Notes under the pieces: generated by a model | Told to the model about the DNA's origin: nothing | What the model saw: only the letters and a program-made list of their open reading frames with translations | Databases searched by the model: none | DNA from: an uncultured Flavobacteriaceae bacterium | GTDB lineage: Bacteria; Bacteroidota; Bacteroidia; Flavobacteriales; Flavobacteriaceae | NCBI GenBank assembly: GCA_963734985.1 | Contig: CAVTJB010000003.1 | Span: 42,807-106,806 of the forward strand | Direction: 5' to 3' | Length of the DNA: 64,000 nucleotides | In this document: one piece after another, positions 25,008 to 62,072 of the stretch | Position numbering within the stretch: position 1 is the stretch's first letter | How the letters are laid out: every line of letters begins with the position of its first letter | Translations under genes and position numbers: made by a program

Positions 25008-25039
25008 TTTTAACAGATATTGCTTAAATTACCCTAGCT

Positions 25040-26174
25040 ATGCAAGTCAAGTATTTGATATCAAAAATTTCAATATTGATTCTTTCATGTTTCATTTTTT
25101 CTTGCGCAAATGAAAAAAAGAAATCCCAATCGAAGCCTAAAGAGGAAATTGAAACGCGCACCGTTACCGCTGCCGCAAATTTCGAAGATTTGGTCATTGT
25201 CGATAGTCTGGGCGTCACCGGTGCCGATGGGGTAATTTCCTTTCCCTTGGATAGTACTACCTCCATTTTTATGATGGGCGATTCATTCCTAGCACCGGTT
25301 CGCCATAAAAAGAGAGATGTAGATAGCAAGATGATCAATAATACCTTCATCTTGATCAATAAAAATAAGCGCACCCATAAAGCCATATATAGAGGAACCA
25401 TTGAGAATGCCCACGCATTGCTGAAACCTGCTTATGACAATCCTCAAGAATATTATTGGCCAGGTGATGGATTTGAAAAGAACGGAACAATACATATTTT
25501 TATGTCCCGGTTTTTACATGATCACACGGCCTGGGGCTTTGAATTTTCAGGAACGGATTACATTCGAATGGATTCAAAAACATTTGAAATATCTTCGCAA
25601 GAGGACTTCCCCTATTCAAATAGGAACCAAGTGCATTATGGACATTCCGTACTTCATCAGGATGATTATACCTATATCTATGGGGCTTGGAGTACAAAAG
25701 ACTAATCCGCTCTTCATATAGCAAAAGCCACACTTAATCCCGATATCAAAAAACTGGAGCGATTTGAATTTTTCGATGGCAACCATTGGACTTCCGACCC
25801 GGTTAAGAGTGCTCCTTTGGGTGGAATCGAACAACAAATACCGGAACAGTTTTCGGTCTTTAAATATGGTGATTTATACGTTTTGCTTTTACAGGCGAGG
25901 GAACTGGGCAACGGAAATATCTTTTCCTACCTTTCAGATAGCCCGGCGGGGCCATGGCGCAACGAAAAATTACTTTATCATACCACCAAACAAGAAAATA
26001 TCGAGGATTAGTATTACCTACAACGCGATGGCCCATCCCCAATACATAAAAGATAACAAACTATTGGTTTCCTTCTGTGTGAATAGTTTTGAAGTATCGA
26101 AGATTCACGAGGTCAATACCGATTATTATCGCCCCAGGTTCATCTGGGTGCCTTTGGAAATGATTTTGGAGTAG
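25040..26174 (+). pseudogene. DUF5005/DUF4185-like beta-propeller lipoprotein, disrupted
   Basis: Lipobox IFSC, GADG...MGDSF, YYWPGDG, SPAGPW and TYNAMAHP. In-frame TAA at 25703-25705 plus frameshifts. Confidence 0.7.
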
Positions 26175-43590: not shown

Positions 43591-45357
43591 CTAACATGCC
43601 TCATCCTTTACAAAGGCGACAATCACCTTGGCCGTGTTTTTTCCAATATTCCTTAATTTATAGCGTTTGGTTGCCGCCGGAACCGCAAATGTTTCTGCGT
43701 AATGAAATTGTTTGGATTCTCCAATAAGGTTCAATTCTACAGTAGTACCTTCCACCAGCATACATATATGGCATTGACCTGCTGTTTCGATAACAACGTT
43801 CCTATCGAATTCATAACGATAGATATCATAAAAATGATCCGGATGAGTAGGCAAATGGATTTTTTTCCACTGATCCCCGGAGGTTTCCAATATGGGTTTT
43901 GAAACCAAGGATTCTTTTACCACTTTGCCCTTGCGTTCAAAATTCAGATTGTCGAAGGCCCGTTCAATGTTGATAGGTCTCGGTTTGCCTTCGAGGTCCA
44001 GGCGTTGCCAATCGTACATTTTAAAGGTAAAAATATAGGGCGTAGCACTGATTTCAAGAACCATCGTGTTCTTTCCCGAGCAATGAATGGTGCCATGGGG
44101 AATTAGAAATAAATCGTGTTTTTTCGCCGGCAGTTTCATGACGTATTTTTCCACATCCAGTTCTTCTCCGGTATCCTGGCTTTGTTGTAAGGCTTCCCTA
44201 AATTTTCTGGGATCAATATTTTCCTGAAATCCTAAATAGACATTCGCGTTGTCCTCTGCATCCAAAATATAATAAGTCTCGTCCTGGGTGAAATTTTCAC
44301 CGAATTCTTTCTCGATATAATCTGGTTTGGGATGACATTGTACAGATAAATTATCACCTTGAAAGGTGTCCAGAAAATCAAAACGGATTGGAAATTCGTC
44401 CTCGAAGCGTTCTGCCGCTTTTCCTAGTATATTTTTCCGTTCGTGGAACATCAGCATATCGAACGAGACCTCTAAAAGCGTCCCCCCCTCCTCAAAAACG
44501 AGTCCATTCTCGGGAACGATCATTTCGAAGGACCAGGCATAATTTGGAGCGTCTGGATTCAATCCTGAAAATCTCTCCTTCATCCATTGCCCCCCCCAGA
44601 CGCCTGGCTCGAACCATGGGCGTACCCGAAAGTAGCTTTTCGACATTTTGGAAAGGTTACTCCTCAGAAGCTCGCCTTCCATCCACGTGGGTTCTTGAGG
44701 TCTTTGTTGATCTACTATGATCGATATTTTTGGAAGTAGTTGTTTCTTTTCCCTGTTGAGTACGATCCAGTCTACAAAATAGAAATGTTTGTACATTAGT
44801 TTGGGGCTTTTGGCCGTAGTAAATCCTAAATTGGCACAGGCCTTGGCGCGACTTCGAAATTGTAGTTCATTTTTTGGTAGATCAAAATAGACCAGGAAAC
44901 CATCTATACCTGACTGATGGGCACCAGTACCGTAAATTAGCTGTATATCGGCAGTGTCGTCGATTTGGATAGTGTCTATTTTTTTTGGGTCAAAATAATC
45001 CCTGAGCGTCAAGGTGGTCCTATGTCCGAATATAGGGTCGTCGCCTCCTAAATAGGGTGCTACCATCGTTTCGATTTCCTCTTCTTGCTTTAAGCATTTA
45101 CGTATATCGAAAGCGTTTACCGAAAGACCTTTTTCTTCCAAACCGAAAACCAGGGCTGATAGTACTTCGCTCCAATCCACACCTATGTAACCATCGAGCA
45201 GAATAGTTTTTTCCCCTGAAATCCTGTCGGCCAAAGTGTCGTAGCCAATTTCAATCTTTCCTTTTCTTATAGGATGCGACGGATTTATATCATACGAATC
45301 GACGCGTGGATCCTCTTTTTTAATTGGCATTAGATATTGGCTGGTATTTCGTTTCAT
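43591..45357 (-). CDS. Class I mannose-6-phosphate isomerase-like protein with a long N-terminal domain (intact)
   Basis: Cupin motifs GVWGG, LSVQCHP, QDETYYI, GTIHCSG and LEISATP, preceded by about 240 extra residues. Confidence 0.82.
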   Translation of the reverse strand: MKRNTSQYLMPIKKEDPRVDSYDINPSHPIRKGKIEIGYDTLADRISGEKTILLDGYIGVDWSEVLSALVFGLEEKGLSVNAFDIRKCLKQEEEIETMVAPYLGGDDPIFGHRTTLTLRDYFDPKKIDTIQIDDTADIQLIYGTGAHQSGIDGFLVYFDLPKNELQFRSRAKACANLGFTTAKSPKLMYKHFYFVDWIVLNREKKQLLPKISIIVDQQRPQEPTWMEGELLRSNLSKMSKSYFRVRPWFEPGVWGGQWMKERFSGLNPDAPNYAWSFEMIVPENGLVFEEGGTLLEVSFDMLMFHERKNILGKAAERFEDEFPIRFDFLDTFQGDNLSVQCHPKPDYIEKEFGENFTQDETYYILDAEDNANVYLGFQENIDPRKFREALQQSQDTGEELDVEKYVMKLPAKKHDLFLIPHGTIHCSGKNTMVLEISATPYIFTFKMYDWQRLDLEGKPRPINIERAFDNLNFERKGKVVKESLVSKPILETSGDQWKKIHLPTHPDHFYDIYRYEFDRNVVIETAGQCHICMLVEGTTVELNLIGESKQFHYAETFAVPAATKRYKLRNIGKNTAKVIVAFVKDEAC

Positions 45358-46205: not shown

Positions 46206-49200
46206 ATGTTGAAAAAATACAGTTTGGTTTTGTTGCTTTCTATGGTGACCGTATTGGTTTTTGGCCAGAAACCCGTTTGGGAGATAGGCAAAGGGGATAA
46301 CAGTGCTTCTGAATTTACCTTGGCACCCTCGGACTACAGCAAGTTTCTCGCAAAGGACTTCGGATGGGAGGACCGATTTTTTGCTTTAGGCTTTTCTAAA
46401 CAGAAAAGGATTTTCCTTATGTTTTACCAGGTGCGGTGGACTATTGGGGAGGAACATCTGGCCTATCGGGAATCCGTCCGCATGAACTGAATCTTTTATT
46501 TTCATTGAAAGGGCAACTAGCTGCCGGCAACTGGCAATTGGTAATCGATATTTTGGACTGCAGCCCTGAAAATCCGCCACTCTTAAAGGTAACCGTAAAT
46601 GGGCACTCATGGAAATTCAGGTTGGACAAGGGTAGTAGTAACGAAGATGCACTAAAGGGTTCCGGTACCCGTTATAAAGAACAGAAACTGGAAATTCCGC
46701 TAGCTCCCGAGCTTCTAAAAAATGGGGGCAATGAAATACAATTGACGAGCCTTGAGGGCAGTTGGTTGGTCTTCGACCAGATCCAACTTAAGGGACCCGA
46801 AAATGTGGAGCTGTAACCCCAAATAAACTTTTTCTTCGCAATACCGAGGCGGCCGATTATGAAATTGATGTGGCCGGTAAACGTTTTCAACCTTTTTTGG
46901 TAGACGTTCAGTATTTGGAAGGCCTACCCAATCTTAGCGTAACCTTGGATGGCAAGAAGATTTTCAGGAAAAACGTGGCAAACGGCAGCCCGATTTTTGA
47001 GGTACCTATGGACGCCGTTACTGAAAATAGGCTTAGCGAATTTGAAGTATTGGTGGACAATGAACCTGTGAAAAAAGGCCAGGTTTTGCGGGCCCCACAA
47101 AAGCCGGTTTCCCTTTCGGATTACATAGACACAAAAATCGGGACAGGTCATTCACGGTGGATGATCGCACCTGGCCCGTGGATGCCGTTTGGCATGGTCA
47201 AAATCAGCCCCGATAATCAAGACAGCGGCTGGCAAGCGGGCTATCAACCAACCTTTGAAAATGTGGGCGCGTTCAGTCATATCCATGAATGGACGATGGC
47301 CGGCCTAGGTACCCTGCCGACAAACGGACTGTTAAAGACCAAAGTCGGAAAGCCTGAAAATCCGGATGGTGGTTATCGATCGAGGGTCAATAAGGTGACG
47401 AAAAAGCTCCTTTGGGATATTATTCCGTTGTTTTAAGCGATTACGATATAAAGACCGAACTTACAGCCACCACTCGTTGTAGCTTCCAACGCTACACTTA
47501 CCCCAAAAATGTGCCGCACTCTAGAATTCTGATCAACCTGAAAATACCTGCAGAATACGATTATCGCATCGAGAAGGCCTATATAGAAAAAGTGGGCTCG
47601 AATAAAATCGTGGGGTATAGCCGGCAGATTACCCCGTCGGTCTGGGGGGAACGGCATTATCGGAAACAAATGGTCGAGAACGGTGATGAATCGAAAGCGT
47701 GGGACGATATCGAACAGGATTACACCGTAAATTTTGTAATGGAGTTTGATAAGCCTATTAAGAAGTTCGGGATTTGGGTCGATGGAGAGAAAAAAGGTAC
47801 AAGCGATTCAATTTTGATAGAGAACCAGAACGGATTAACCATTGAAAAACCCGAGGATGTGGTTGTCTTCGCTGAGTTCGATACTACAGAAAACCAGGTA
47901 ATACAAACCAGAACGGGCTTATCTTATGTAAGTATAGATAATGCGGCGCTGAACTTAAAGACGGAGATTGGACAGCCTTTTGGTTGGGATTTTGAAAAAG
48001 TAAGGAAAAACCACGAAAAGGTCTGGAACGATCTATTGAAAAGAGTGCTGATTACCACTCAAGATAGAAAGGAAAAGACCCGCTTTTATTCCAATATGTA
48101 CCGCGCCATCGTAAGCCGGAATATTTTTAGCGATGTGGACGGAAACTGGATGGATGCTACCGAAAACCCCCAAAAATTCGAAGATGCCAATGGAGTGGCC
48201 CTAGGTTGCGACGCTTTTTGGAATACCTTTTGGAACCTGAACCAGTTTTGGAACCTGGCCGTTCCCGAACTGTCTTCTAAATGGGTCAATTCCCAATTGG
48301 CCATGTACGATGCGAACGGCTGGCTGGCCAAAGGGCCCGCAGGTATGGAGTATATCCCTGTGATGGTGGCCGAACATGAAATTCCATTGATTGTGGGTGC
48401 CTATCAAATGGGTGTTGACGATTTTGATGCCGAAAAGGCTTTCGAGGCAGTCCATAAAATGCAGACGGTTCATGGTGAGACCGTGGGCCATGGATACGCA
48501 GGAAACCGTGATTTGGAAGCTTATTTGAAATACAGCTACGTACCATACAATAAAGGAAGGTTTTCCAATACGTTGGAATATACTTTTGACGATTTCGCTG
48601 TATCCCAGATGGCCAAGGCCTTAGGCAAAAAGGATGTTTTTGAACAGTTTATCGACCGCGCCTACTGGTGGAAAAATGCCATAGACCCCACAATAGGTCT
48701 TGCAAGGCTCCGGCATTCGGACAGCTCTTGGTACAAAGAATTCGACCCACTGAAAACAGGGGGCAACCATCAATATGTAGAAGGGAACGCCTGGCAACTT
48801 TCCTTTTTTGTGCCTCAGGATGTTCCCGCCTTGGTTGAAATAATAGGAGAGAAACTGTTTGTGGATCGATTGGACGGAGGTTTTAAGGTTAGTAGCCCTT
48901 GGCGTTATAATGCTCCCAATGAACTCTATTGGGATTTTCCGGTGATACAGGGCAACCAACAGTCGATGCACTTTTCCTATTTGTTCAATTGGGCAAAACA
49001 TCCATGGCTAACCCAAAAATGGAACCGTGATATCATGGAGCGGTATTATGGTTTCGGGGTTTCGAACGCCTATCTCGGTGATGAGTATCAAGGCCAGATG
49101 AGCGCATGGTTCGTCATGTCGGCCTTGGGCCTTTTTCAGACTGACGGCGGAACCAGGGAAACACCCATATATGAGATTGGCAGCCCTATATTCGAAAAAA

Positions 49201-49433
49201 CGGTTATCGACCTAGGGAACATTTACGGAAGGGGAAGCACCTTCACAATCGAAGCAAAAAATGTGTCGTACCTTAACAAATACGTTCAGAATGCCAAATT
49301 GAACGGAAAAGAGCTTAGGAACTTTTGGTTCCCGGCTTCCGAACTGCTGCGGGGTGGTAAACTGGAACTGGTCATGGGGCCGGACCCGAATAAGAACTGG
49401 GGAGTAGGTACTATGCCGAAAAGCCCGAAATAA
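46206..49433 (+). pseudogene. GH92 alpha-mannosidase no.3 with N-terminal beta-sandwich module, frameshifted
   Basis: SRWMIAPGPWMPFGMVKISPDN, TLEYTFDDF, YVEGNAWQL and GDEYQGQMSAWF; frameshifts near 46400, 46815 and 47400. Confidence 0.9.
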
Positions 49434-49510: not shown

Positions 49511-49813
49511 ATGCCTCATTTCAGAAATGCAAAGCCTTGGCGAATGCCATCTAAAACAATCAGAATTTTTCCCAAGTCAAGAGAATGGCCAAGAAAGCGG
49601 AGAAGGCGGATTTTAATACCGGTGAGGGATGTAGAGAAGTTCCTGTCAAATAGGGGATTTTTACACGGCAGATGCCATTCGAATTTTAAAGAAGAACGGG
49701 TATGATGGGATACTAATTCCGAATCCCAGCCCTGCGATTATTTGCGACCCTCCTGGCACGCCAGCATAACTTATTCGATGGGTGATATGAAAATCTTGCT
49801 CGACACGGTATGA
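49511..49813 (+). pseudogene. uxuA: Remnant of D-mannonate dehydratase (UxuA/ManD), C-terminal part
   Basis: Hand translation: PHFRN...AIRILKKNGYDGILIPNP...CD/PSWHASITYSMGDMK. This resembles the UxuA C-terminus (HFRNV...GVLIPDHTP.MTC.A.WHAGMAY.LGY) as recalled, with the metal-binding PDH degraded. Confidence 0.65.
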
Positions 49814-50823
49814 CGAAAAATTGCAACATAAACGACAAATGGACCTATAACAATATGAGGGTCGTTTTTATGGAGAACGAATCCCGCAAGATTGGCATTC
49901 GAAGCAGGGCGTGGCAGCGACATTTTCCAAGTTCGTCTATAAGCCTGTCGGCATTGATCTCATGTTGCGATTGGACAAGGATATCCTAAATCCCCAAGAG
50001 GTATTTTCCCAACTGGTGATAAATACCAAAAACCAATTTAGGAGGATTACGATTATGGGGGATGGCAAGAGGTTTTGCCGAATAGCTCGCCACAAATTAT
50101 CACGGGGCAGAATTGGGGCAGCACGGAGAAGTTTCTTTGATTCCTTGGGATTATGCGGTTATTAAAAATTCGGACGCTGAGGTAGCGGTCAAATTATGGA
50201 CGCGGCCATTGCGTTATCCAATTTTAAATCGAAAAGACCTTGACCTTAGAAAAAGGAAGCCAGAGTTTGCAGATCGATGAAACTCTTACCAACGAATCGG
50301 AAACCGAGTTGCATATGATGTGGGGGCACCATATTGCCTTTGGTATGCCATTTTTGAAGGAAGGTGCTTGTATTGAAACCTCCGCGAAAAAATTCAGGGC
50401 GGAACAGGCGATGTGAGGCCATCGCATATTTAAGCCGGGAACTGAGCAAGATTGGCCGATAGTCGCAACCTTTGACAATCAAAAAATCGACGCAAGTAAG
50501 GTTTTGACTGCAACGGAAGGCAAATTTTCGGATTTGGCCTATTTGTCCAAGTTTAAGGAGAATGCATTTTATAGGATTGCCACAGATCGCATGTCTTTTA
50601 CGATAGCGTGGGACAAGGCAATTTTCAAATCTCTCTGGTATTGCAGGAACGATACGCTATCCAGGATGCCCCGTGGTGGGGCAAGACTTATGCTGTTGCC
50701 CGGCAACCATGGGCCAATGATTGGAAAGAGAACCCAACAGTGGAAAATATCGAAAAAGAATGGTTAAAACTGGAACCCAGACAGATTTTGGAAACGACGA
50801 TATCAACAACTTGTACACATTAG
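49810..50823 (+). pseudogene. Aldose 1-epimerase-like (DUF4432-type) protein, disrupted
   Basis: Pieces MENE..KIGI, YYGGWQEVLPN, LGQHGEVSLIPW, MWGHHIAFG and LWYC. In-frame TGA at 50414-50416 plus frameshifts. Confidence 0.72.
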
Positions 50824-50826
50824 CTT

Positions 50827-51693
50827 ATGAAAGCGGCAACTATTTTAGATATAAAGCCTGTTCACGGTGAAGCCTTATCGGGTGCCCCATCGAACAAAAA
50901 TTTTATTGTGTCGATTTGTTGAAAGGCTCCTACTTTAAGGTGGATTGGGCATCCAAAAAAGCCGAAGAATACAATGTAGGCCAAGAACTAGGCGTGATGG
51001 CATTACGCGAAAATGGTGGGATAGTGGCAGGAGTTCGCGATGGTTTGGATTTTATCATGAGCATACCAACGAACTACGGCTTATTGAAAATTCACCGAAC
51101 TACATGTCTCTGACCGACGTATGAACGACGGGGCGGTAGATCCGGCAGGAAGGTTTTTGGCTGGTACCATGGAGTATGACGGTGCCAACCATACTGGCAA
51201 TCTTTACCGTTTGAATCCGGACCACAGTATAGATCATCTTGAAAACAACATCTTTATTACCAACGGAATGGGCTGGAGCCCCGATAAGTGCACCTACTAT
51301 ATGATCGATACAAATAGAAATGTATGTTATGCCTACCATTACGATTTGGAAACAGGAAACATTTCCAATCGGAGAAAGCATATCAAATGGAAAAAAAATG
51401 AATATCCCGATGGCATGACGGTCGATTCGGATGGAGGTTTGTGGGTCGCCCTGTGGGGTGGGCATAAAGTAAGCCATTTCAATGCCGGTGGCACATGGAT
51501 CGAGGATATTGAAATTCCCGTGCTGCATGTGACGAGCTGTTGTTTCGGCGGCGAGGATTTGAAAACCCTTTTGGTAACTACTTCGCGCCTAAACCTATCG
51601 GAAAAGGAGCAGGAACAAAATCCATTGGCCGGAAGATGTTTTGCCATTGAAACGGATGCGATTGGACAAATAGAACCACGTTTTAAAGGATAA
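50827..51693 (+). pseudogene. SMP-30/gluconolactonase family protein, 5' frameshifted
   Basis: RMNDGAVDPAGR, ITNGMGWSPD, YPDGMTVDSDGGLWVA and VTSCCFGG. Confidence 0.88.
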
Positions 51694-51698
51694 CGAAA

Positions 51699-52450
51699 AT
51701 GAAGAAAAGAAATATAATAGTAACCGGAGGTGCAAAGGGAATCGGTAAGGCCTGTACCGAATATTTTTTGGAGAATGGCGACCATGTCATCGCCTTGGAT
51801 GTCGACCGGGACGCGTTGAAAAAACTTGAAAATCCACAAGGTAGGTTGCTTGGACTTGCCTGTGACGTTTCGAAATCGAAAGAAGTCGAGCAGGCCATTC
51901 AAAAAGGGATAGACAGGTTCGGAGAAATCGATATACTTGTCAACAATGCGGGAATCCAAAGGTATTCGACGGTCACGGAAACCTCCGAGGAAGAGTGGGA
52001 TCTGGTCATGAACGTCAATTTAAAAAGTGCTTTTCTTTGTGCAAAGTATGCGGTGCAATCGATGCAAAAAAAGGGAAAGGGTGTAGTAATTAATGTGTCT
52101 AGCGTTCAGGCCTTTGTCAGTCAGGAACGGGTGGCGCCCTATACCACCTCGAAAACGGCTATGTTGGGATTAACAAGAAGTATTGCCGTTGATTATGCCC
52201 CGAATATAAGATGCGTTGCAGTGTGTCCAGGAACGGTGGATACCCCCATGTTACGTGATGCCATAGCCACCATGGATAATCCTGAAGCCGTATATCAGGA
52301 ATGTATCGATATGCATTTGAGCAAACGTATCTGTCCGCCCGAAGAGGTGGCGGCCCTCGTCGGGTTTCTAAGCAGCGATATGGCAGGTCTATTACGGGAC
52401 AGGCCTTTCGGGTCGATGGAGGATTGGGGATTCTTTGTGAAGGAAATTAA
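51699..52450 (+). pseudogene. SDR oxidoreductase resembling archaeal aldohexose (mannose) dehydrogenase AldT; frameshift near the C-terminus
   Basis: TGGAKGIG, VNNAGIQRY, NVSSVQA, YTTSK, SIAVDYAPNIRCVAVCPGTVDTP. The natural end ITGQAFRVDGGLGILCEGN* is in another frame after about 52389. Confidence 0.85.
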
Positions 52451-52520
52451 GGCCACGGCCCCATGCATTTCCCTTACCGTTAAATTGCGTTTCTTCGGAT
52501 GGGAGAAGGGGAGGGGAGTT

Positions 52521-54487
52521 TCAAAATGCATGGGATCGTAAAAATACTTTTCCTTGGCCGTACCCAATTCAAAATCATCCGTTCGGAATGGAAAAGCAGG
52601 CAACCCATCCGTATTGTATAAATTTAAGGCTCCGGGATTATCGGACCAAGCATAGCGCACGAATTTAGGGTCGGAAACCTGATTGGAATACACGGTCACC
52701 TCATCGGCACCAGACAGTTCTGCTTTCGCCCAAACGAATTTCCCATCTTCGCCGGCAATGGCAAAACCTCTCAGATAACCGAATTTATCGGTGCTTTTGA
52801 GAGTGCTCCCGTAGGTATCGAACTTGATTTTAATCGTATTCCCATCCACCGACTGACTTTTATAGGTCGGCGCCTTGTGTAAAGGCTTCCCATATTCATC
52901 GTGCAGGGCCAAAAGCGAGAGCCGTCTTCCTACTTCCAATTTGTTGTAGGGATGGATGTCGTTTGCATTCCCGATATCGATGGCCGTCATAATATCAACA
53001 TTCGGCAGCTGCGTAGCTTTCATTTGCGAGTTACGGACTTCGGCCCATTTACTGTTTCCGGGGATGGAATCTTCTTGTCTATAATTGGCCAACTGCACTA
53101 TATAAAATGGCATGTCGGGATCCTTCCACTTTTTGCGCCAATCGGTGATCATGCCCTTTAACAGGGATTCATATTCGACCGCCCTCTTTTCGTTCGATTC
53201 CCCTTGGTACCAAATTACGCCGGTAATGGGAAGACCTAGTAAAGGAGCGATGCCCCCGTTGTACAACAACATCGGGTGCGAAAATACACTGCCGTTCGGC
53301 ACCTTTGGTTTCGGGAATTTTTTTGCATCTATGGATCTTCCTTTTTTATATTTCCATTGTCCGACCAAGATGGGGTTGCCCCAAAAGGCATTGGTATAGA
53401 TTCCGCCTTTGCCACCGGAATCAAAAACGCGGACGGTGAGGGTATTGTCTTTTGCCAGTAAAATCTCCTTGGGTACGGTGTAGTTCCTGAAGTTGCTATT
53501 GCCAAAGGTTTCTCCCACCTTTTGGCCGTTGACCCATGTGATGTCATAGTCATCGATTTGATTTAAGGCCAAAGGGAAATCCTTGTCGAGTCGGGTGGAA
53601 TCGAGGTCGAACGTCTTACGGAACCAAAAACTACCGTCGTGGTCGGCATAGCCAAAATCTTCCCAGAAGGAGGGAAGCGTAATTTCCTGCCAATCGGAGT
53701 CATCGTAATCATCGGTATACCACTTTTCTTCGAGTCCGGGCCCTTTTAGGTATTGCCTGTCCCATTTCTTACGGTACTTTTCAAATTCCCTGTTCAAGGT
53801 CGCAAAATCCTTTTTGGTTTTTTCGATGTTGGAGGTGACTTCATCAAATTGGGGGAATTTTTTCAGGGCATCCATACTCATCCACGTTTCGATGGTGGTC
53901 GCCCCCAGGTTACTGCTGATTAATCCGATCGGAACCTCCTGGTTTTCGGCCAATTCCCTTCCAAAAAAATATCCGACGGCACTAAAGTTCCGAACGGTCT
54001 CCGCATTCGCCTCTGCCCAAATGGCCATGGAAACTTCGTCCTGTGGAAGATAATCGGATGCGATTCCTATCGAGCATAAACGCAGGTTGGGATATGCGAT
54101 GCGACTTGTATCCTTTTCCACATAGTCCAACATGTTCAAGGTATATTGCATGTTCGATTGGCCCGCGCAGAGCCATAGGTCGCCGACCAGAATATTCTCC
54201 AAGTTCAGCTCCTCCTTGCCTTTGAACGATAAGGTGAAGGGCCCGCCATAGTCCATTGGTTCAAGAACTACTTTCCAGTTTCCCTTCTTATCGGCTGTTT
54301 CCGAATGCAATTGATCGCCAATGGAGATCTGTAGGGTTTCCATGGGTGCGGCCGTCCCTTCTATGGGAATAGATTTGTTTCTGGGCAACACCATATTGGA
54401 CGCGAATATTTTGGGGAGTTCTATCTGCCCGAGTACCAAATTGTGCGGTATAAAGGCGAATAGGAAAATGACCAAAAATTTCTTCAT
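52521..54487 (-). CDS. Sialate O-acetylesterase (SASA)-family esterase with inserted beta-sandwich
   Basis: GDLWLCAGQSNM, VIWYQGESN, DIHPYNK and VRYAW. The probable natural stop is at 52521; the ORF reads on to 52295 through a terminal frameshift. Confidence 0.88.
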
Positions 54488-54494
54488 TGTAATT

Positions 54495-55851
54495 TCAGTT
54501 TAATTCTTCATCGGCCGTCCAGCTCAGTTCAATTTCCTCCAAGGTTTTTCCTTTAGTTTCCGGGATTACGTTATAGGTGAAAATCAATAGGATAATCGCA
54601 TTGGCCATAAAGAGCCAAAAGGTGTATGCGCCGCCGATTTTATCCAGAAGCACGGGAGTGAACTGGGATATAAACCAGACCCCTACCCACAGTACCATAA
54701 TCGATAACGACATGGCAATGCCCCGGGTCTTGGTCGGAAATATTTCCGAGATCAATACCCATGGGATCGGACCCAAGGAGGTTGCAAAGCATCCGACGAA
54801 ACCTAAAATAAAGATCAATACCCAAGGCCCAGTGGTCAATCCGAGATAAAACAGGGTGCCGACCGCCAATAAACAGATCGCCATTCCGGAAACTCCCCAT
54901 AACAACAAAGTCCTACGGCCCAGCTGATCGATGTATTTTATGGCAACGAACGTGAAAATAGTGTTGATGACCCCAATGATCACGGTCTGCATCAAGGCGG
55001 AATCTACCCCGAAACCGGCTCCTTTTAAAATTTCAGGGGCATAGTACATGATAGCGTTGATCCCGGTAATCTGGGAAAAAAGCGCAAGTACGATCCCGAT
55101 AATCATGGCGATACGGAGCCCGGGAGCGAAAAGTTCTTTGAGCGTTCCCTTTTCTTGCCCTAGCGTCAGCTTGATTTCGTTATGCACCTTTTTTGCCAAC
55201 TCATCGGAATTTACCCTGCCCAAAATATCGAGCGCTTCGTCGTGTCTGCCCACTTTGGATAGCCATCTAGGACTTTCCGGTACAAAAAACAACGCAATGA
55301 GGAACAAAACCGCGGGAACTGTTTCGGAGCCCAACATATAACGCCATCCCATTTCAATGTTCCACTGTTCCCCATACATTCCCGCAATGATATAATTAAG
55401 GAAGAACACAATGTTGATGCCCACTACAATGGCCAGTTGATACAGCGAGACTAACATGCCCCGCTTGTTCGCGGGAGCGATTTCGGAAATGTACAAAGGC
55501 GACAACATCGAAGCCGCCCCGACCCCAACACCGCCTATCATCCTCGCTATTACCAATTGGTTGAATGTTTCCGCCAAGGCACAGCCAATGGCCGAAATGG
55601 CAACAAAAAGGCGGTAATGATCAGTGTTTTCTTTCTTCCATTTTATCGGCAACATAACCGGCGACGGCGACCCCTCCGATACACCCCAAAATGGCGCAGG
55701 AAACGGCCCACCCTTTCAGGTCTGGGCTCAAGGAAAATTTGGTTTCCATAAAACCGATCGCCCCGGATATTACAGCGGTGTCATACCCGAACAGTAATCC
55801 GCCCAAGGCACCGATGATTGTTATTAACAATAAATACCTTGATTTTTTCAT
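54495..55851 (-). pseudogene. Sugar porter family MFS transporter, frameshifted near the 5' end
   Basis: GGLLFGYDTAVISGA, YISEIAP, PESPRWL, QITGINAIMYY and PETKGKTLEEI. Confidence 0.92.
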
Positions 55852-55931: not shown

Positions 55932-58748
55932 TTATAAAATCTTTAATCCCCGACCCTTCATTGTGGAACAGGTTGGGGAATGTTCACTCCTTGCCCCAAT
56001 TTTTATTGGGTTCGAACCAAGAACAATTTCCAATTTGCCTCCTTTTTCATAGTCCTTCTGGGAAAACCAATACGTTTCCAGAGCTTTGTTATTTAATTTG
56101 GCACTATGGATATATCTGTTTTCTTCGGAGTTGTTGTCCGTGGTAATCCTAAACTCCCAGCCCGATAGTATTTGTTGTCCAAAGAAATAACGATCTCATC
56201 AAAAACGGGACTTGTTAATTCATATCTCGGTTCCAACGAGTTGGTTCCTGTGAGACTGAATAAACCCAATGACATTAGGGCACTTACCCCACCCATCTGA
56301 CCTTGGTCTTCATCATGCCCACCATACCCTTTGTCAATACTAGTAGCCCCGTAAGCCTGTTCATTGACCTTTCGAACCCAATATTGGGTCAGCCATGGTT
56401 TGCCTGCATGATTGAAAACATGTGCATTGGAACAGCCCGGTTGATTGGCATAGCTTACATAACCGCTACCATAACCAAAGACAAAATCTTCGGCATCCGC
56501 TTGTTCAAAAGCATAGTTCAATTTGTTGCAAAGCACATCATTGCCTCCCATTAATTTGGCAAGCTCATGGATACCATGGGAAACGGACCATGTTCCCTGC
56601 CAAGAATTTGCCTCGACCCACCCGCTGTTACTTGAGGGGTCGTCATGGGTCCATTTACCGTTCGCGTCTTTTGGAAAAATCAAGTTTTGTGAAGGTTTGA
56701 ATAAGTTCTTCCATCCTTCTGATCTATTTAAAAAATAGTTGTAGTCCTTGTGCTTCCCCAATTTTTTGGCCATTTGGGACAAGGACGAGTCCTGGAACGT
56801 CCATTCTATGGTTTTCCCAGCGTTACCCGGGCACCAGCCGTGGTCGATATAAAATTGAAGTTCTTCCGGGGTGTCGCCAATCATCCGCCCGGCATATGGT
56901 TTTGTTTCATTTCTTTAAAGGCCTGGTGCGGGTCGACCTTGGTCATCAAATCTTTCATGTACGTGCTCGCGATCATATTCGTCGCCGGGCAGCCTGTCAT
57001 AATATAGGAATATCCACCGGCGATAGCTCCCCGAGGGAGAAGACCGCCATTTTTTGAATATTGCACCAAAGAAGCAGAAAAATCGTCCAAGATTTCAGGC
57101 CATGCTAGTCCCCATAGAATATTGAGGTTCCATTGGGTAAGCCATAAGGCATCAAAATTGTACATATTGAACTTGGCATTGCCATCGGCGTCCATAGGAA
57201 GTTTCCGTACCTTTAGGTTCGCTTTTGTGAAATTGGCATAGCGCTCGCCTTGGGTGTAGTCTGGATAATCACCACTTACATCGTTCAAAATTCGTCTTCC
57301 CAATAACACATGCCAAAGATCGGTGTAGAATTTTACTGTTTGATCGTGTGTACCGCCTTTTACCTTGATTTTGCCCAGTTTGTCGTTCCAAACGGACAAC
57401 GATTTGTTCTTATATGCTTCAAAATTCCAATCGGGTGCTTCGGCTTCCAAATTCTTTCTAGCATTTACGATAGAGGTATACGATATGGAAATTTTCATTT
57501 GTATTTCATCGCCGGCCTCGACATCGTATTGGGCGGAAACACCGGTTGTTGGGGCATTCCAATAACTCTGTGTCAAACTGGGGAAGACAATGGAGTCACG
57601 TCGTGTCATTTCGGTCGTTCCCTTGAGGTTTTCGATGTTCGATAGAATTTCGTTCTCGTTCCAACCATTAAAGGCTTTGAATGGTTTATCAAATTTCGCG
57701 ACAAAAAATATCTTTACATTTTCTGGACCGCCCCAAAATCTTCCGGACAAATCAAAGTAACCTTCAAATGCGGTTTGGCCTACCTTTCGAACATCGGCAT
57801 TGATCATCGTCGAATTCCCCAGATAACCCCCCAAGTTGGTCAGGATATTGGCTTCCGCTTTTTCGGTAAAGTTAAAACGATAGAACGTAGTTCTTTCCGT
57901 ACTGGTATAGTCGACCCACATATGATAGTCCTCGAGATAGACCCGCTGATAGCCGGGGATGGCAATCTCGTCATCATGACTAAAGCTCGATTTCCAAGCT
58001 GCGGCACCATGGGTGGATCAACCTCGCCTGTTGTTGGCATTACCTGAATACCCGATAGGCACCAACCATGAATCTGTTCAAAGCCCAGTATTTCGGTTGA
58101 ATTGTAGTTATAACCGCCCCCGTATTGGTTCTTGTTCCGGGTTATCGGTGCTGCGGCCACCATGCCCATGGGCCTAGCACCAGGGGTAAAGAAAAAGTAC
58201 CTGCCCTTGGCAGATTCTATGAAGGGGTCTACCCAAGTAAGTGGGGCATCATCCTGACCACGTGCGGCAAAGACCTCGATTTCGGAAAGGCCCATTCCCA
58301 ATCCCTCTCCATCGGTGACATCAAAACGCACCCATTCCACTTCCTTGGCGGGAAAGGTAACCATTTTTGGGGAACCGTCATTTGGAATGGCGGTCACCGA
58401 AATTTTACTGCCATCGCTAAAAACCAGGGTGCCACTACCGATTTGGGTTTGGACGCCGGGGCGATCGTACAAGGTAATTTTCTCGATGGATCGCTTTATA
58501 GGCCATTCCAGTTTTATCCAAGGCAATTCAAAAAAACCCCAAGCCCTGTGATCACCCTGACTTGCCCATTCCCCCAATCCCTGTATGCGGATTATTCCAT
58601 CCGTTATATTGGATACAGGATGTTCTGATTGTTCCGTAGATGCACTTATTTTTGCTTGCGGCGCTATATTTTGGGACACAACAAAGATCGAACCCGCAAG
58701 GCAGAATAAAACGGTGAAAATAATTTTTATATGTTTTCCTATCATCAT
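55932..58748 (-). pseudogene. GH92 alpha-mannosidase no.4 with N-terminal discoidin (F5/8C)-like module, frameshifted
   Basis: RYFFFTPGARPMG, FYTDLWHVLLGR, WVEANSWQ and GHDEDQGQMGG; three main pieces. The 3' end is approximate. Confidence 0.88.
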
Positions 58749-60271: not shown

Positions 60272-62072
60272 AGTATACCACCAGCGGCGGGTCAAAGTGG
60301 ACCACCCACAGCGGGTGAAAGTGAGCCACTAAAAACCGATTCTATTTGAGGGTTATGTCAATGGTCTTTTTTTTGTTAAAAAGATCATGGCCAACAAACA
60401 AATAGAAATGCGAAAAGTAAAACGAATATTCAAGCTATATAGCATTGGCGTCAGCAAGCGCCAAATAATCAAGCAGCTTGGTCTTTCCAGAAATACGGTA
60501 ACGAAGTATATAGCGTTCTTCAAGCGTTATAAGTTGACAGCCTATGAAGTCGATGCACTGACCCTTGAAGAGCTGCACAAGCTGTTCAAGTCGGAACAAC
60601 GCACGAAAAGTGAGCAGCTACAGACCTTAGAAAGGTACTTTTCCTATTTCGACAAAGAGCTACGAAAAACAGGTGTGACCAAACAGTTGCTTTGGCAGGA
60701 GTACTATCCCAAGCACCCTGACGGGTTCCAGCTATCACAGTTCAGGTATTGGTACAGGGAGTGAACCAAGGAGGTCTCCCCGGTAATGCATTTTACGCAT
60801 AAGGCCGGGGACAAACTGTTCATCGATTACACGGGCAAGAAACTTCATACAGTAGATAAACATGCGGGAGAAATACAGGACCTAGAGGTCTTCGTGTGTG
60901 TTTTGGGCAGTAGCCAATATACCTATGTGGAGGCCCGCGCAAGTCAAAAGAAAGAAGATTTTATCCAATGTGTAGAAAATGCACTTTGGTATTATGGCGG
61001 TGTACCACAGGCTCTGGTGCCCGACAACCTAAGGGCGGCGGTAACCAAAAGTAGCCGTTACGAGCCAAAGGTAAATGAGACCTTTGCCGACTTTGCCGAG
61101 CATTACGAAACAGCAGTACTGCCTACAAGGGCCTACAGGCCAAGGGATAAAGCTATTGTCGAGAATACCGTCCGTATCATTTACACAAGGGTGTTCGCAC
61201 CTCTTAGAGACCAGACCTGCCATAGCGGGGCCGATCTCAACAAGGCCATTCTAGAACTTTTGGACGTCCATAATAAAATGCCCTTCAGGGGCAGGGAATA
61301 CTCTCGTTATTCTCTTTTTAAGGAAATCGAAAGTTTAGAGTTGAAACCTTTGCCGGTAAAGCGGTACGAGATAAAATTTTACGCCAAGGCAACGGTCCAC
61401 AAGAACAGCCACATCTACCTGAGCAAGGACAAACACTACTACAGTGTGCCCTACCAACACATAGGCAAGCACGTGAAAATTATATTCTCCAATAGTCTGG
61501 TAGAGATTTTTTATAAGGAGGAAAGACTTGCGGCACATGGGCGTGAGAAAAGGAACAAATGCCCTCGCACCACCGGTTCATAAGTGAATGGAACTCTGAT
61601 AAATTCATAGACTGGGCAAGCAATATCGGGATCCATTGTAAAGAATATATCATAGAGATCTTGGATAAAAAACAGCATCCGGAGCAATCGTACAAGTCGT
61701 GCCTTGGGATATTGCACCTGGCCAAAAGGGCGGGCAACGAAAGATTGGACAAGGCCTGTAAAAGAGCTTCGGGCTACCAAGCTTACAACTATAACATGAT
61801 CGATAGGATACTCAAAAAGGGCTGGGACAAACTTGATGAAGACCCGGAAGAGGATATAGAGATTCCCGGCCATAACAATATAAGGGGAGGCAATTACTAC
61901 AAATAGAAATCATTAAAAACACCAATATGAATACACAAACATTGGAACAGATGAAACAATTAAGGTTCTACGGTATGCTCAGGGCCTTTAACACCAGCTT
62001 GGCACCAAATAGTATCGGCTACACCAATGACGAGCTGATAGCCTATTTAATGCAATCGGAATGGGACGAAAG
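60272..62072 (+). mobile_element. IS21-family element: disrupted istA (60387-61906) and truncated istB (61927-about 62072)
   Basis: End repeats GCGGGTCAAAGTGGACCAC (60287-60305) and GCGGGTGAAAGTGAGCCAC (60311-60329). IstA motifs FIDYTG, VPDNLRAAV and PRDKAIVE; nonsense TGA at 60762; frameshift near 61560. istB stops after QSEWDE. Confidence 0.9.

Follow-up and report, generated by a model that had tools for sequence, protein, structure and literature searches.

A decayed copy of a conserved four-gene cassette, with a predicted role in oxidative D-mannose catabolism, in a flavobacterial alpha-mannan locus

Introduction

An oxidative, non-phosphorylative route for D-mannose has been proposed for Thermoplasma acidophilum, comprising AldT (Ta0754), ManD (Ta0753), and an aldolase (Ta1157) for 2-keto-3-deoxygluconate (KDG) (PMC6901390; Kopp et al. 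2019, Catalysts 9:234; Nishiya et al. 2004). The AldT and ManD route was reconstituted in vitro with the Thermoplasma enzymes, whose genes are adjacent (PMC6901390), and has also been invoked in a haloarchaeal genome paper. A stretch of 64,000 nucleotides (the window) on contig CAVTJB010000003.1 of assembly GCA_963734985.1, from an uncultured Flavobacteriaceae bacterium, carries at positions 49511-52450 four damaged genes which an earlier reading of the letters alone (the original prediction) took for the relic of an archaeal-type mannose pathway: a UxuA remnant, an aldose-epimerase-like gene, a lactonase, and a short-chain dehydrogenase/reductase (SDR) resembling AldT. That prediction had described AldT as being encoded beside a mannonate dehydratase gene, as is indeed stated for Thermoplasma (PMC6901390). 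We report here that 49511-52450 probably holds a four-gene cassette that occurs mainly in Bacteroidota and was recently inactivated in this genome, and that the intact cassette is best read as a candidate route from mannose to KDG.

A kinase and phosphomannose isomerase (PMI) are the assumed entry point into bacterial metabolism for the mannose of algal, fungal, and glycoprotein mannans. For Coxiella burnetii and Coxiellaceae, the relevant passages of a preprint (bioRxiv 2026, PMC13252051) predict mannose catabolism by CBU_1275-CBU_1277, with an AldT-like SDR and UxuA followed by KdgK/Eda, and describe the AldT and UxuA-type route as uncharacterised outside archaea. A further set of described systems are the diketo-hydrolase routes for L-rhamnose (LRA1-6), L-fucose, and pentoses (Route III), in which a dehydrogenase, a lactonase, and a dehydratase are followed by a 4-dehydrogenase SDR and a FAH-family hydrolase (PMC6336799, PMC11199699). 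Literature searches on mannose dehydrogenase, mannonate, lactonase, GH92, and Bacteroidetes found no paper on a Bacteroidota cassette. The main interest of the locus lies in the intact and widespread cassette to which the dead copy in the window points.

Results and Discussion

Identity and layout of the cassette in the window

Downstream of a GH92 alpha-mannosidase gene that ends at 49433, long open frames are absent except for 51121-51693 and 51699-52541, and three-frame translation of the region gave recognisable protein sequence that switches frames. The four elements were found where the original prediction had placed them, all on the + strand and in the order UxuA-family 3' remnant (49511-49813), DUF4432 (49810-50823), SMP-30/gluconolactonase-family lactonase (50827-51693), and AldT-like classical SDR (51699-52450). 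The window and the intact orthologs share an ATGA stop/start overlap, which lies at 49810-49813 in the window. Lesions in each gene were scored in the assembled sequence against three intact orthologs.

The first element had been described as a mannonate dehydratase C-terminus that a track of open reading frames (ORFs) does not reveal, and comparison with intact orthologs bore this out. A tblastn search of the window with the UxuA-family orthologs from two intact loci (L014:4700-5764 and L013:4706-5767) matched 49653-49754, corresponding to residues 302-335, at 68% identity (E 4.5e-9), with a second match in a different frame at 49718-49810; an E-value of 5e-8 was also obtained. In a DNA alignment, homology to three orthologs runs from ~49520 to a shared GTATGA at 49808-49813, and the DNA upstream is unrelated. 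The remnant keeps the last ~95 of 354 codons, with ~770 bp of the 5' end gone, and the GH92 gene sits where the 5' part of the dehydratase would be expected. No further fragment of the cassette dehydratase was found anywhere in the assembly by ortholog tblastn. What is left carries at least four frameshifting indels (49540, 49578, 49655, and 49748), and its conserved PDH motif reads PNP, with HFRN retained. The Pfam UxuA model did not see the remnant in a whole-genome search, Pfam found nothing on ORF fragments of 49511-49813, and NCBIfam and Pfam gave almost no matches on the small ORF fragments of 49511-50823. As tblastn queries, the genome's own three UxuA paralogs matched the remnant only weakly (E 0.006-0.036). 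The remnant is too short and eroded for the Pfam model, so its tie to the family comes through the orthologs.

The intact ortholog at L014:4700-5764 matches PF03786 (UxuA) with 167 bits against a cut-off of 23.7, and a PDB sequence search with an intact ortholog returned three clear matches, all of them mannonate dehydratases (3BAN at 1.3e-29, 1TZ9, and 4EAC). Its HPDDPP, C-x-G, H-x-R-N, and PDH motifs, which may be metal or catalytic ligands, align with 3BAN, and PF03786 is common to the cassette protein and canonical UxuA. The cassette protein differs in its length (354 aa vs ~394 aa), in scoring only 107 bits to 3BAN, and in having an aldose dehydrogenase gene as its partner in place of UxuB/UxaC. 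By these sequence comparisons, the cassette dehydratase is a divergent UxuA subfamily. To our knowledge, all characterised UxuA-family enzymes are D-mannonate dehydratases.

The same genome keeps a canonical uxuA at C2:684465-685649. Two other UxuA-family paralogs, distinct from it and of 403 and 409 aa (G000:C3:107893-109101 and C2:670163-671389), have twin-arginine-like N-terminal signals and are 26-28% identical to the cassette dehydratase; the former lies ~1.1-2.3 kb past the end of the window.

The second gene belongs to DUF4432, for which the literature search found no paper on function. PF14486 matched the window fragment 50240-50416 (2.7e-9) and also the intact ortholog. A PDB sequence search with DUF4432 gave no match. 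An AlphaFold model of the ortholog (pLDDT 89.6, pTM 0.89) was compared with solved folds by Foldseek and resembled galactose mutarotases and putative aldose 1-epimerases (4BZE, E 8.2e-17; 3MWX; 3TY1, TM 0.73), and on this model DUF4432 is assigned the mutarotase (aldose 1-epimerase) beta-sandwich fold. His103, His171/His172, and Glu297 are invariant in 60 DUF4432 sequences, and their positions, which are like those of GalM, suggest a putative catalytic His/His/Glu set. In the window the invariant Leu296-Glu297 has become Arg-Gln (E297Q), and the gene carries six frameshifting indels (49901, 49931, 50040, 50089, 50226, and 50642) and a TGA at 50415-50417. The TGA sits in a run at 50409-50420 in which six of nine bases differ from a congener, the Pricia sp. 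metagenome-assembled genome (MAG) G010 (ATGTGAGGCCATCG vs ATGCCGGAACACCG), with conserved flanks and the same length.

For the lactonase, PF08450 matched the open frame 51121-51693 (1.3e-57), which represents the C-terminal two thirds of the SMP-30/gluconolactonase propeller, and tblastn with intact orthologs found homology spread over three frames. The intact ortholog covers the whole propeller (PF08450, 248 bits), and its PDB relatives include regucalcin (4GN7, 1.3e-42) and an SMP-30/Cgr1 protein (7PLB, 3.5e-41). The lesions here are three 1-bp deletions, at 50872, 51043, and 51096.

The open frame of the SDR, 51699-52541, matched PF00106 (1.5e-54), and the only lesion scored was a single 1-bp deletion at ~52387 that displaces the last 21 codons (ITGQAFRVDGGL...). 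The cofactor and catalytic (N-S-Y-K) set is complete, with the motifs TGGAKGIG, ALDVD, NNAG, SSVQ, and Y..TSK; the acidic residue that ends beta-2 (ALDVD) presumably indicates a preference for NAD, as in SDRs generally. The original prediction had likened this protein to AldT, and the PDB ranking, the top NCBIfam model, and the tree all agree. The best solved relatives of the window SDR are 3VTZ (3.7e-48) and the T. acidophilum AldT entry 2DTD (3.5e-42); for the intact ortholog the ranking is 3VTZ (191 bits), AldT 2DTD/2ZK7 (185 bits), and then a next match at 158 bits. We take 3VTZ, deposited as a glucose 1-dehydrogenase, to be the T. volcanium AldT homolog. For both the intact ortholog and the window SDR the top NCBIfam model is "aldose dehydrogenase" (NF005007/PRK06398). 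In a tree of the SDRs of all fetched loci (see below) and four PDB sequences, with a small outgroup sample, the cassette SDRs formed one clade (100/98) with AldT and 3VTZ as its sister (91/86), followed by Chloroflexota SDRs that follow DUF4432 (97/94); SDRs adjacent to a hydrolase gene were placed apart, with DHRS6/BDH2.

Together the three full-length genes hold 10 frameshifting indels and one TGA. With every gene broken and ~770 bp of the dehydratase missing, all four cassette genes are, as judged from the assembled sequence, pseudogenes, and the cassette is predicted to be unable to work in this genome. In the frame of the orthologs, the three genes retain 68-73% identity to L014, equal to the identity among intact orthologs, and this suggests that the decay is recent.

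The intact cassette in other bacteria

Species-representative genomes were scanned with the DUF4432 fragment of G010, which returned 80 loci; 79 were fetched, and 29 of these contain all four genes. The intact genes encode a UxuA-family protein of 354 aa, a DUF4432 protein of 335 aa that starts in the ATGA overlap, an SMP-30 lactonase of 290 aa, and an SDR of 250 aa. The closest loci with this intact order are from Arenibacter, Flavobacteriaceae MAR_2010_72, Cerina, Winogradskyella, Algibacter, Aquaticitalea, a Saprospiraceae MAG, and Portibacter. The original prediction had looked to intact operons in related Flavobacteriaceae, and these place a UxuA-family dehydratase at exactly the position of the remnant. 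The intact cassette is present in L013-L020 and L022 and also in Lewinellaceae and Cyclobacteriaceae, among others. In more distant Bacteroidota the order is the same and the lactonase is a more divergent SGL-family protein. Carriers of the cassette include marine, soil, and freshwater bacteria.

A GH38 or GH92 alpha-mannosidase gene lies within 6 kb in 14 of the 29 complete loci, and an MFS (major facilitator superfamily) porter and a PMI-like gene also occur nearby. The SASA-type esterase and MFS sugar porter found beside the cassette in the window are downstream of the cassette in Arenibacter as well, and in Cerina the MFS porter is found together with a GH92 gene.

Comparison with Thermoplasma shows the same pairing of an SDR aldohexose dehydrogenase gene with a mannonate dehydratase gene and, on the proposed reading, the same chemistry from mannose via mannonolactone and mannonate to KDG; AldT and the T. 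volcanium homolog are also the nearest solved relatives of the cassette SDRs. The systems differ in that lactone hydrolysis is spontaneous in the archaeal route, whereas in bacteria the cassette also has genes for a mutarotase-fold protein and an SMP-30 lactonase. The cassette SDR is only moderately similar to AldT (185-191 bits), has Gln at the presumed Glu84 position, and has a shorter C-terminal tail. Downstream, the neighbours of the cassette are a second SDR and a FAH hydrolase instead of a KDG aldolase, and the window copy is dead. The label "archaeal-type" given in the original prediction is loose: the cassette is widespread in bacteria, adds the mutarotase-fold and lactonase genes, and often has a diketo-acid hydrolase branch, which is missing from the archaeal scheme.

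The Coxiella prediction, compared by its description only, follows the same AldT and UxuA logic in a bacterium. It concerns a different phylum and the setting of an intracellular pathogen, not that of a polysaccharide-utilisation locus (PUL), and its downstream part is semi-phosphorylative (KdgK/Eda). The word "lactonase" does not occur in the text of PMC13252051, and its relevant passages do not name a mutarotase. The diketo-hydrolase routes share with the cassette the succession of dehydrogenase, lactonase, and dehydratase, and the hydrolase neighbouring intact cassettes is most similar to 8GSR. The cassette differs from them in its UxuA-family dehydratase and its alpha-mannosidase context, and the second SDR and hydrolase are absent from the window.

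A candidate route for D-mannose and its alternatives

Conversion of mannose via mannonolactone and mannonate to KDG is the best-supported reading of the intact cassette, and we put the probability that D-mannose is the substrate at roughly 60%. In the proposed route, D-mannose freed by the neighbouring GH92/GH38 alpha-mannosidases would be imported by the adjacent MFS porter, and its anomers would be equilibrated by the mutarotase-fold DUF4432 protein. The SDR would then oxidise C1 with NAD+ to give mannonolactone, the lactonase would open the lactone to D-mannonate, and the UxuA-family enzyme would dehydrate D-mannonate to KDG. The second SDR and the FAH-family enzyme, which are encoded next to the cassette at about half of the intact loci, may convert the keto-deoxy acid further to pyruvate with no phosphorylation step. 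We infer the substrate and each catalytic step from three independent lines: D-mannonate is the only substrate for which the UxuA family is known, the closest characterised relatives of the cassette SDR prefer D-mannose, and mannosidase genes are neighbours. Every in-silico test named in the original prediction came out in its favour, and at this level its interpretation is supported. If the reading is right, mannan-degrading loci hold a second entry route for mannose with a different energy and redox balance, DUF4432 gains a function, and a new UxuA subfamily is defined. The window copy would then document loss of the route within a single genus, with the kinase-type genes of that locus still open, a natural experiment on which route is dispensable.

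Several observations weigh against this reading. The UxuA-family ortholog falls under the NCBI equivalog/subfamily cut-offs (TIGR00695, 104.2 vs 199.55; NF003027 (PRK03906), 133.1 vs 191), and the SDR scores below the 341-bit cut-off of PRK06398 (278.7 for the intact ortholog and 243.6 for the truncated reading of the window). The residue after NNAGI is Glu in AldT (NNAGIES) and 3VTZ (NNAGIEQ), and Gln in 22 of the 23 cassette SDRs that have the motif; the window reads NNAGIQRYST. We take this position to be AldT Glu84, a contact of the axial C2-OH of mannose, a role said to have been described by Yasutake et al. in 2007; a Gln there might still hydrogen-bond. The commonest neighbours at the complete loci encode no mannosidases but a pair of DUF5005/DUF4185-like proteins (18 of 29), and a second SDR with a FAH-family hydrolase lies within 6 kb in 15 of 29. 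The best PDB relative of this hydrolase is L-2,4-diketo-3-deoxyrhamnonate hydrolase (8GSR, 1.7e-66), and its top NCBIfam model is NF053535. As regards the decay, the lesions are those of the assembled sequence.

Several of these points suggest the strongest alternative, in which the same cassette, decayed in the same way, serves another sugar, such as a 6-deoxyhexose, a pentose (D-arabinose or D-lyxose), or another hexose, its keto-deoxy acid being oxidised at C4 and cleaved by the hydrolase as in the L-rhamnose, L-fucose, and pentose routes. The SDR and FAH pair may reflect oxidation and hydrolysis of the keto-deoxy acid to pyruvate and a C3 acid, or a substrate other than mannose, and the likeness of the hydrolase to 8GSR and NF053535 fits a 6-deoxy sugar or pentose at least equally well. 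The FAH-adjacent SDRs group with DHRS6/BDH2, the mammalian homolog of L-2-keto-3-deoxyfuconate (L-KDF) 4-dehydrogenase (PMC11199699). The characterised relatives of the frequent DUF5005/DUF4185-like pairs cleave D-arabinan, and the Gln at the presumed Glu84 position is a further point in favour of another sugar. Against this stands the dehydratase itself, as the only characterised activity that we know of in the UxuA family is on D-mannonate and the three clear PDB matches agree. In the known diketo-hydrolase routes for L-rhamnose, L-fucose, and pentoses, the dehydratases are members of the enolase or IlvD/EDD families and not of UxuA. The mannose preference of the nearest characterised dehydrogenases and the GH38, GH92, GH130, and PMI-like neighbours also indicate mannose, and the hydrolase branch fits mannose too, since KDG could be carried to pyruvate and glycerate. 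We regard another sugar as a serious but doubtful possibility.

An extension of the mannose reading is to join the intact cassette with the second SDR and FAH hydrolase in a fully non-phosphorylative route, from mannose via mannonate, KDG, and 2,4-diketo-3-deoxygluconate to pyruvate and D-glycerate, tied to alpha-mannan loci and with DUF4432 as the mannose mutarotase. Such a route would be the hexose counterpart of the rhamnose, fucose, and pentose diketo-hydrolase routes. We offer this version tentatively and, taken in all its parts, consider it rather unlikely.

The four genes could also be mere neighbours that form no single pathway, with the SDR and lactonase acting in general aldose oxidation or detoxification and the UxuA-family protein in hexuronate metabolism. 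A lactonase-SDR pair occurs without the other two genes in G010:C196, DUF4432 is found in a quite different Chitinophagaceae operon, and a canonical uxuA lies elsewhere in the same genome. However, several families and phyla retain the dehydratase-DUF4432-lactonase-SDR order, in which the genes overlap or almost touch, the four activities together make up a complete series of chemical steps, and the conserved neighbours include no uronate isomerase or mannonate oxidoreductase cluster. We consider this reading highly improbable.

Frameshifts may also arise as artefacts of assembly or sequencing. The cassette has 10 frameshifts in ~2.6 kb, compared with one in 5.4 kb of the ROK, GntR, 588-aa PMI-like, and esterase genes, a clustering with a Poisson P of ~2e-8 under a uniform error rate (our own arithmetic). 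No lesion lies within a long homopolymer, and 85% of bases genome-wide are within stop-free frames of at least 150 aa. A uniform sequencing error was rejected on the distribution of the lesions and on their kind, which includes substitutions and a large deletion, and sequencing error is an unlikely source of the lesions as they appear in the assembly. That the three full-length genes are functional in the organism would accord with their retained identity to L014, with 1-2-bp indels making up all but one of their lesions, and with lesions scored in the assembled sequence, but it is highly improbable given indels outside long homopolymers and concentrated in certain genes while interleaved genes stay open, the substitutions behind the TGA, E297Q, and PDH to PNP changes, the ~770 bp of the dehydratase missing from the entire assembly, and the independent large deletions in the same cassette of the congener G010.

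Surrounding locus and congener

The genes that surround the cassette in the window include four for GH92 enzymes and one each for a ROK kinase, a GntR regulator, and a PMI-like protein. The alpha-mannan locus is also decaying. The GH92 gene directly upstream ("no. 3" in the original prediction; 46206-49433, + strand) is broken into at least four reading frames, with ORF fragments at 46206-46490, 46436-46816, 46870-47436, and 47412-49433; it was identified from these fragments, from a Pfam GH92 match to the last of them, and by tblastn. The GH92 gene at 56001-58709 is in at least three frames, one GH92 gene is truncated, and the MFS porter is split. The frames of the ROK kinase and the PMI-like gene are intact.

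Two genes on the - strand follow the cassette and are syntenic with the intact loci. The SASA-type carbohydrate esterase (52523-54487) is full length and has lost its stop codon. Its orthologs end in ...YDPHAF*, the window reads ...YDPMHFETPL..., and the frame continues to 52295, adding 73 residues that are encoded antisense to the SDR 3' end. The MFS sugar transporter (Sugar_tr family; 54495-55851) has one frameshift near 55620 and is represented by ORFs 54495-55655 and 55621-55851; tblastn with the Arenibacter ortholog matched it in two pieces, at 88% and 77% identity.

Among 40 related genomes, a close relative of the SDR was found only in G010 (89% identity), and nine other genomes of the genus are without it. 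In the G010 copy of the cassette, ~690 bp of the lactonase is deleted, and the contig begins inside DUF4432. A second lactonase-SDR pair in the same genome (L011, G010:C196, 5689-10630, - strand; 78% identity) has an SDR truncated after residue ~192. It sits behind an MFS_2 symporter, a GH130 phosphorylase, and an AGE-family epimerase, an arrangement of the beta-mannoside operon type.

The second SDR and FAH pair, exemplified by L014:8546-10161, was also seen in L016-L019, L026, L030, L036, L037, L040, L044, L048, L053, L062, and L065. It is absent from the window, and the only similar hydrolase of the genome is at C5:143626-144474 (50% identity). The DUF5005/DUF4185-like proteins form a tandem of ~400 aa each, divergent from the cassette (L014:2328-4781), and a frameshifted relative lies in the window at 25028-26144. 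Characterised DUF4185 enzymes are endo-D-arabinanases (GH183). A link between DUF4185 and the cassette through the D-arabinan PUL paper was considered and dropped, as that paper holds none and the organism concerned uses a fucose-isomerase-like enzyme.

Outside the cassette, DUF4432 occurs in another conserved operon, in Chitinophagaceae and others (L047, L056, L059, L061, L063, L067, L069, L075, and L076), with genes for an MFS porter, an SDR, a family III CoA-transferase, an enoyl-CoA hydratase, a solute-binding-like protein, a 7-bladed lactonase, DUF4432, a 420-aa protein, and a ROK kinase. The PMI-like gene of the window (43591-45357, - strand) encodes an intact 588-aa protein that had no Pfam match at E <= 1e-4, "PMI-like" being the label of the original prediction. 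In Arenibacter (L013), an end-truncated ORF located past the esterase and the MFS porter, downstream of the cassette, shares 56% identity with the C-terminal ~290 residues of this protein. A mobile-element gene, an integrase-core/Mu-transposase-C ORF at 60786-61583, borders the decayed locus.

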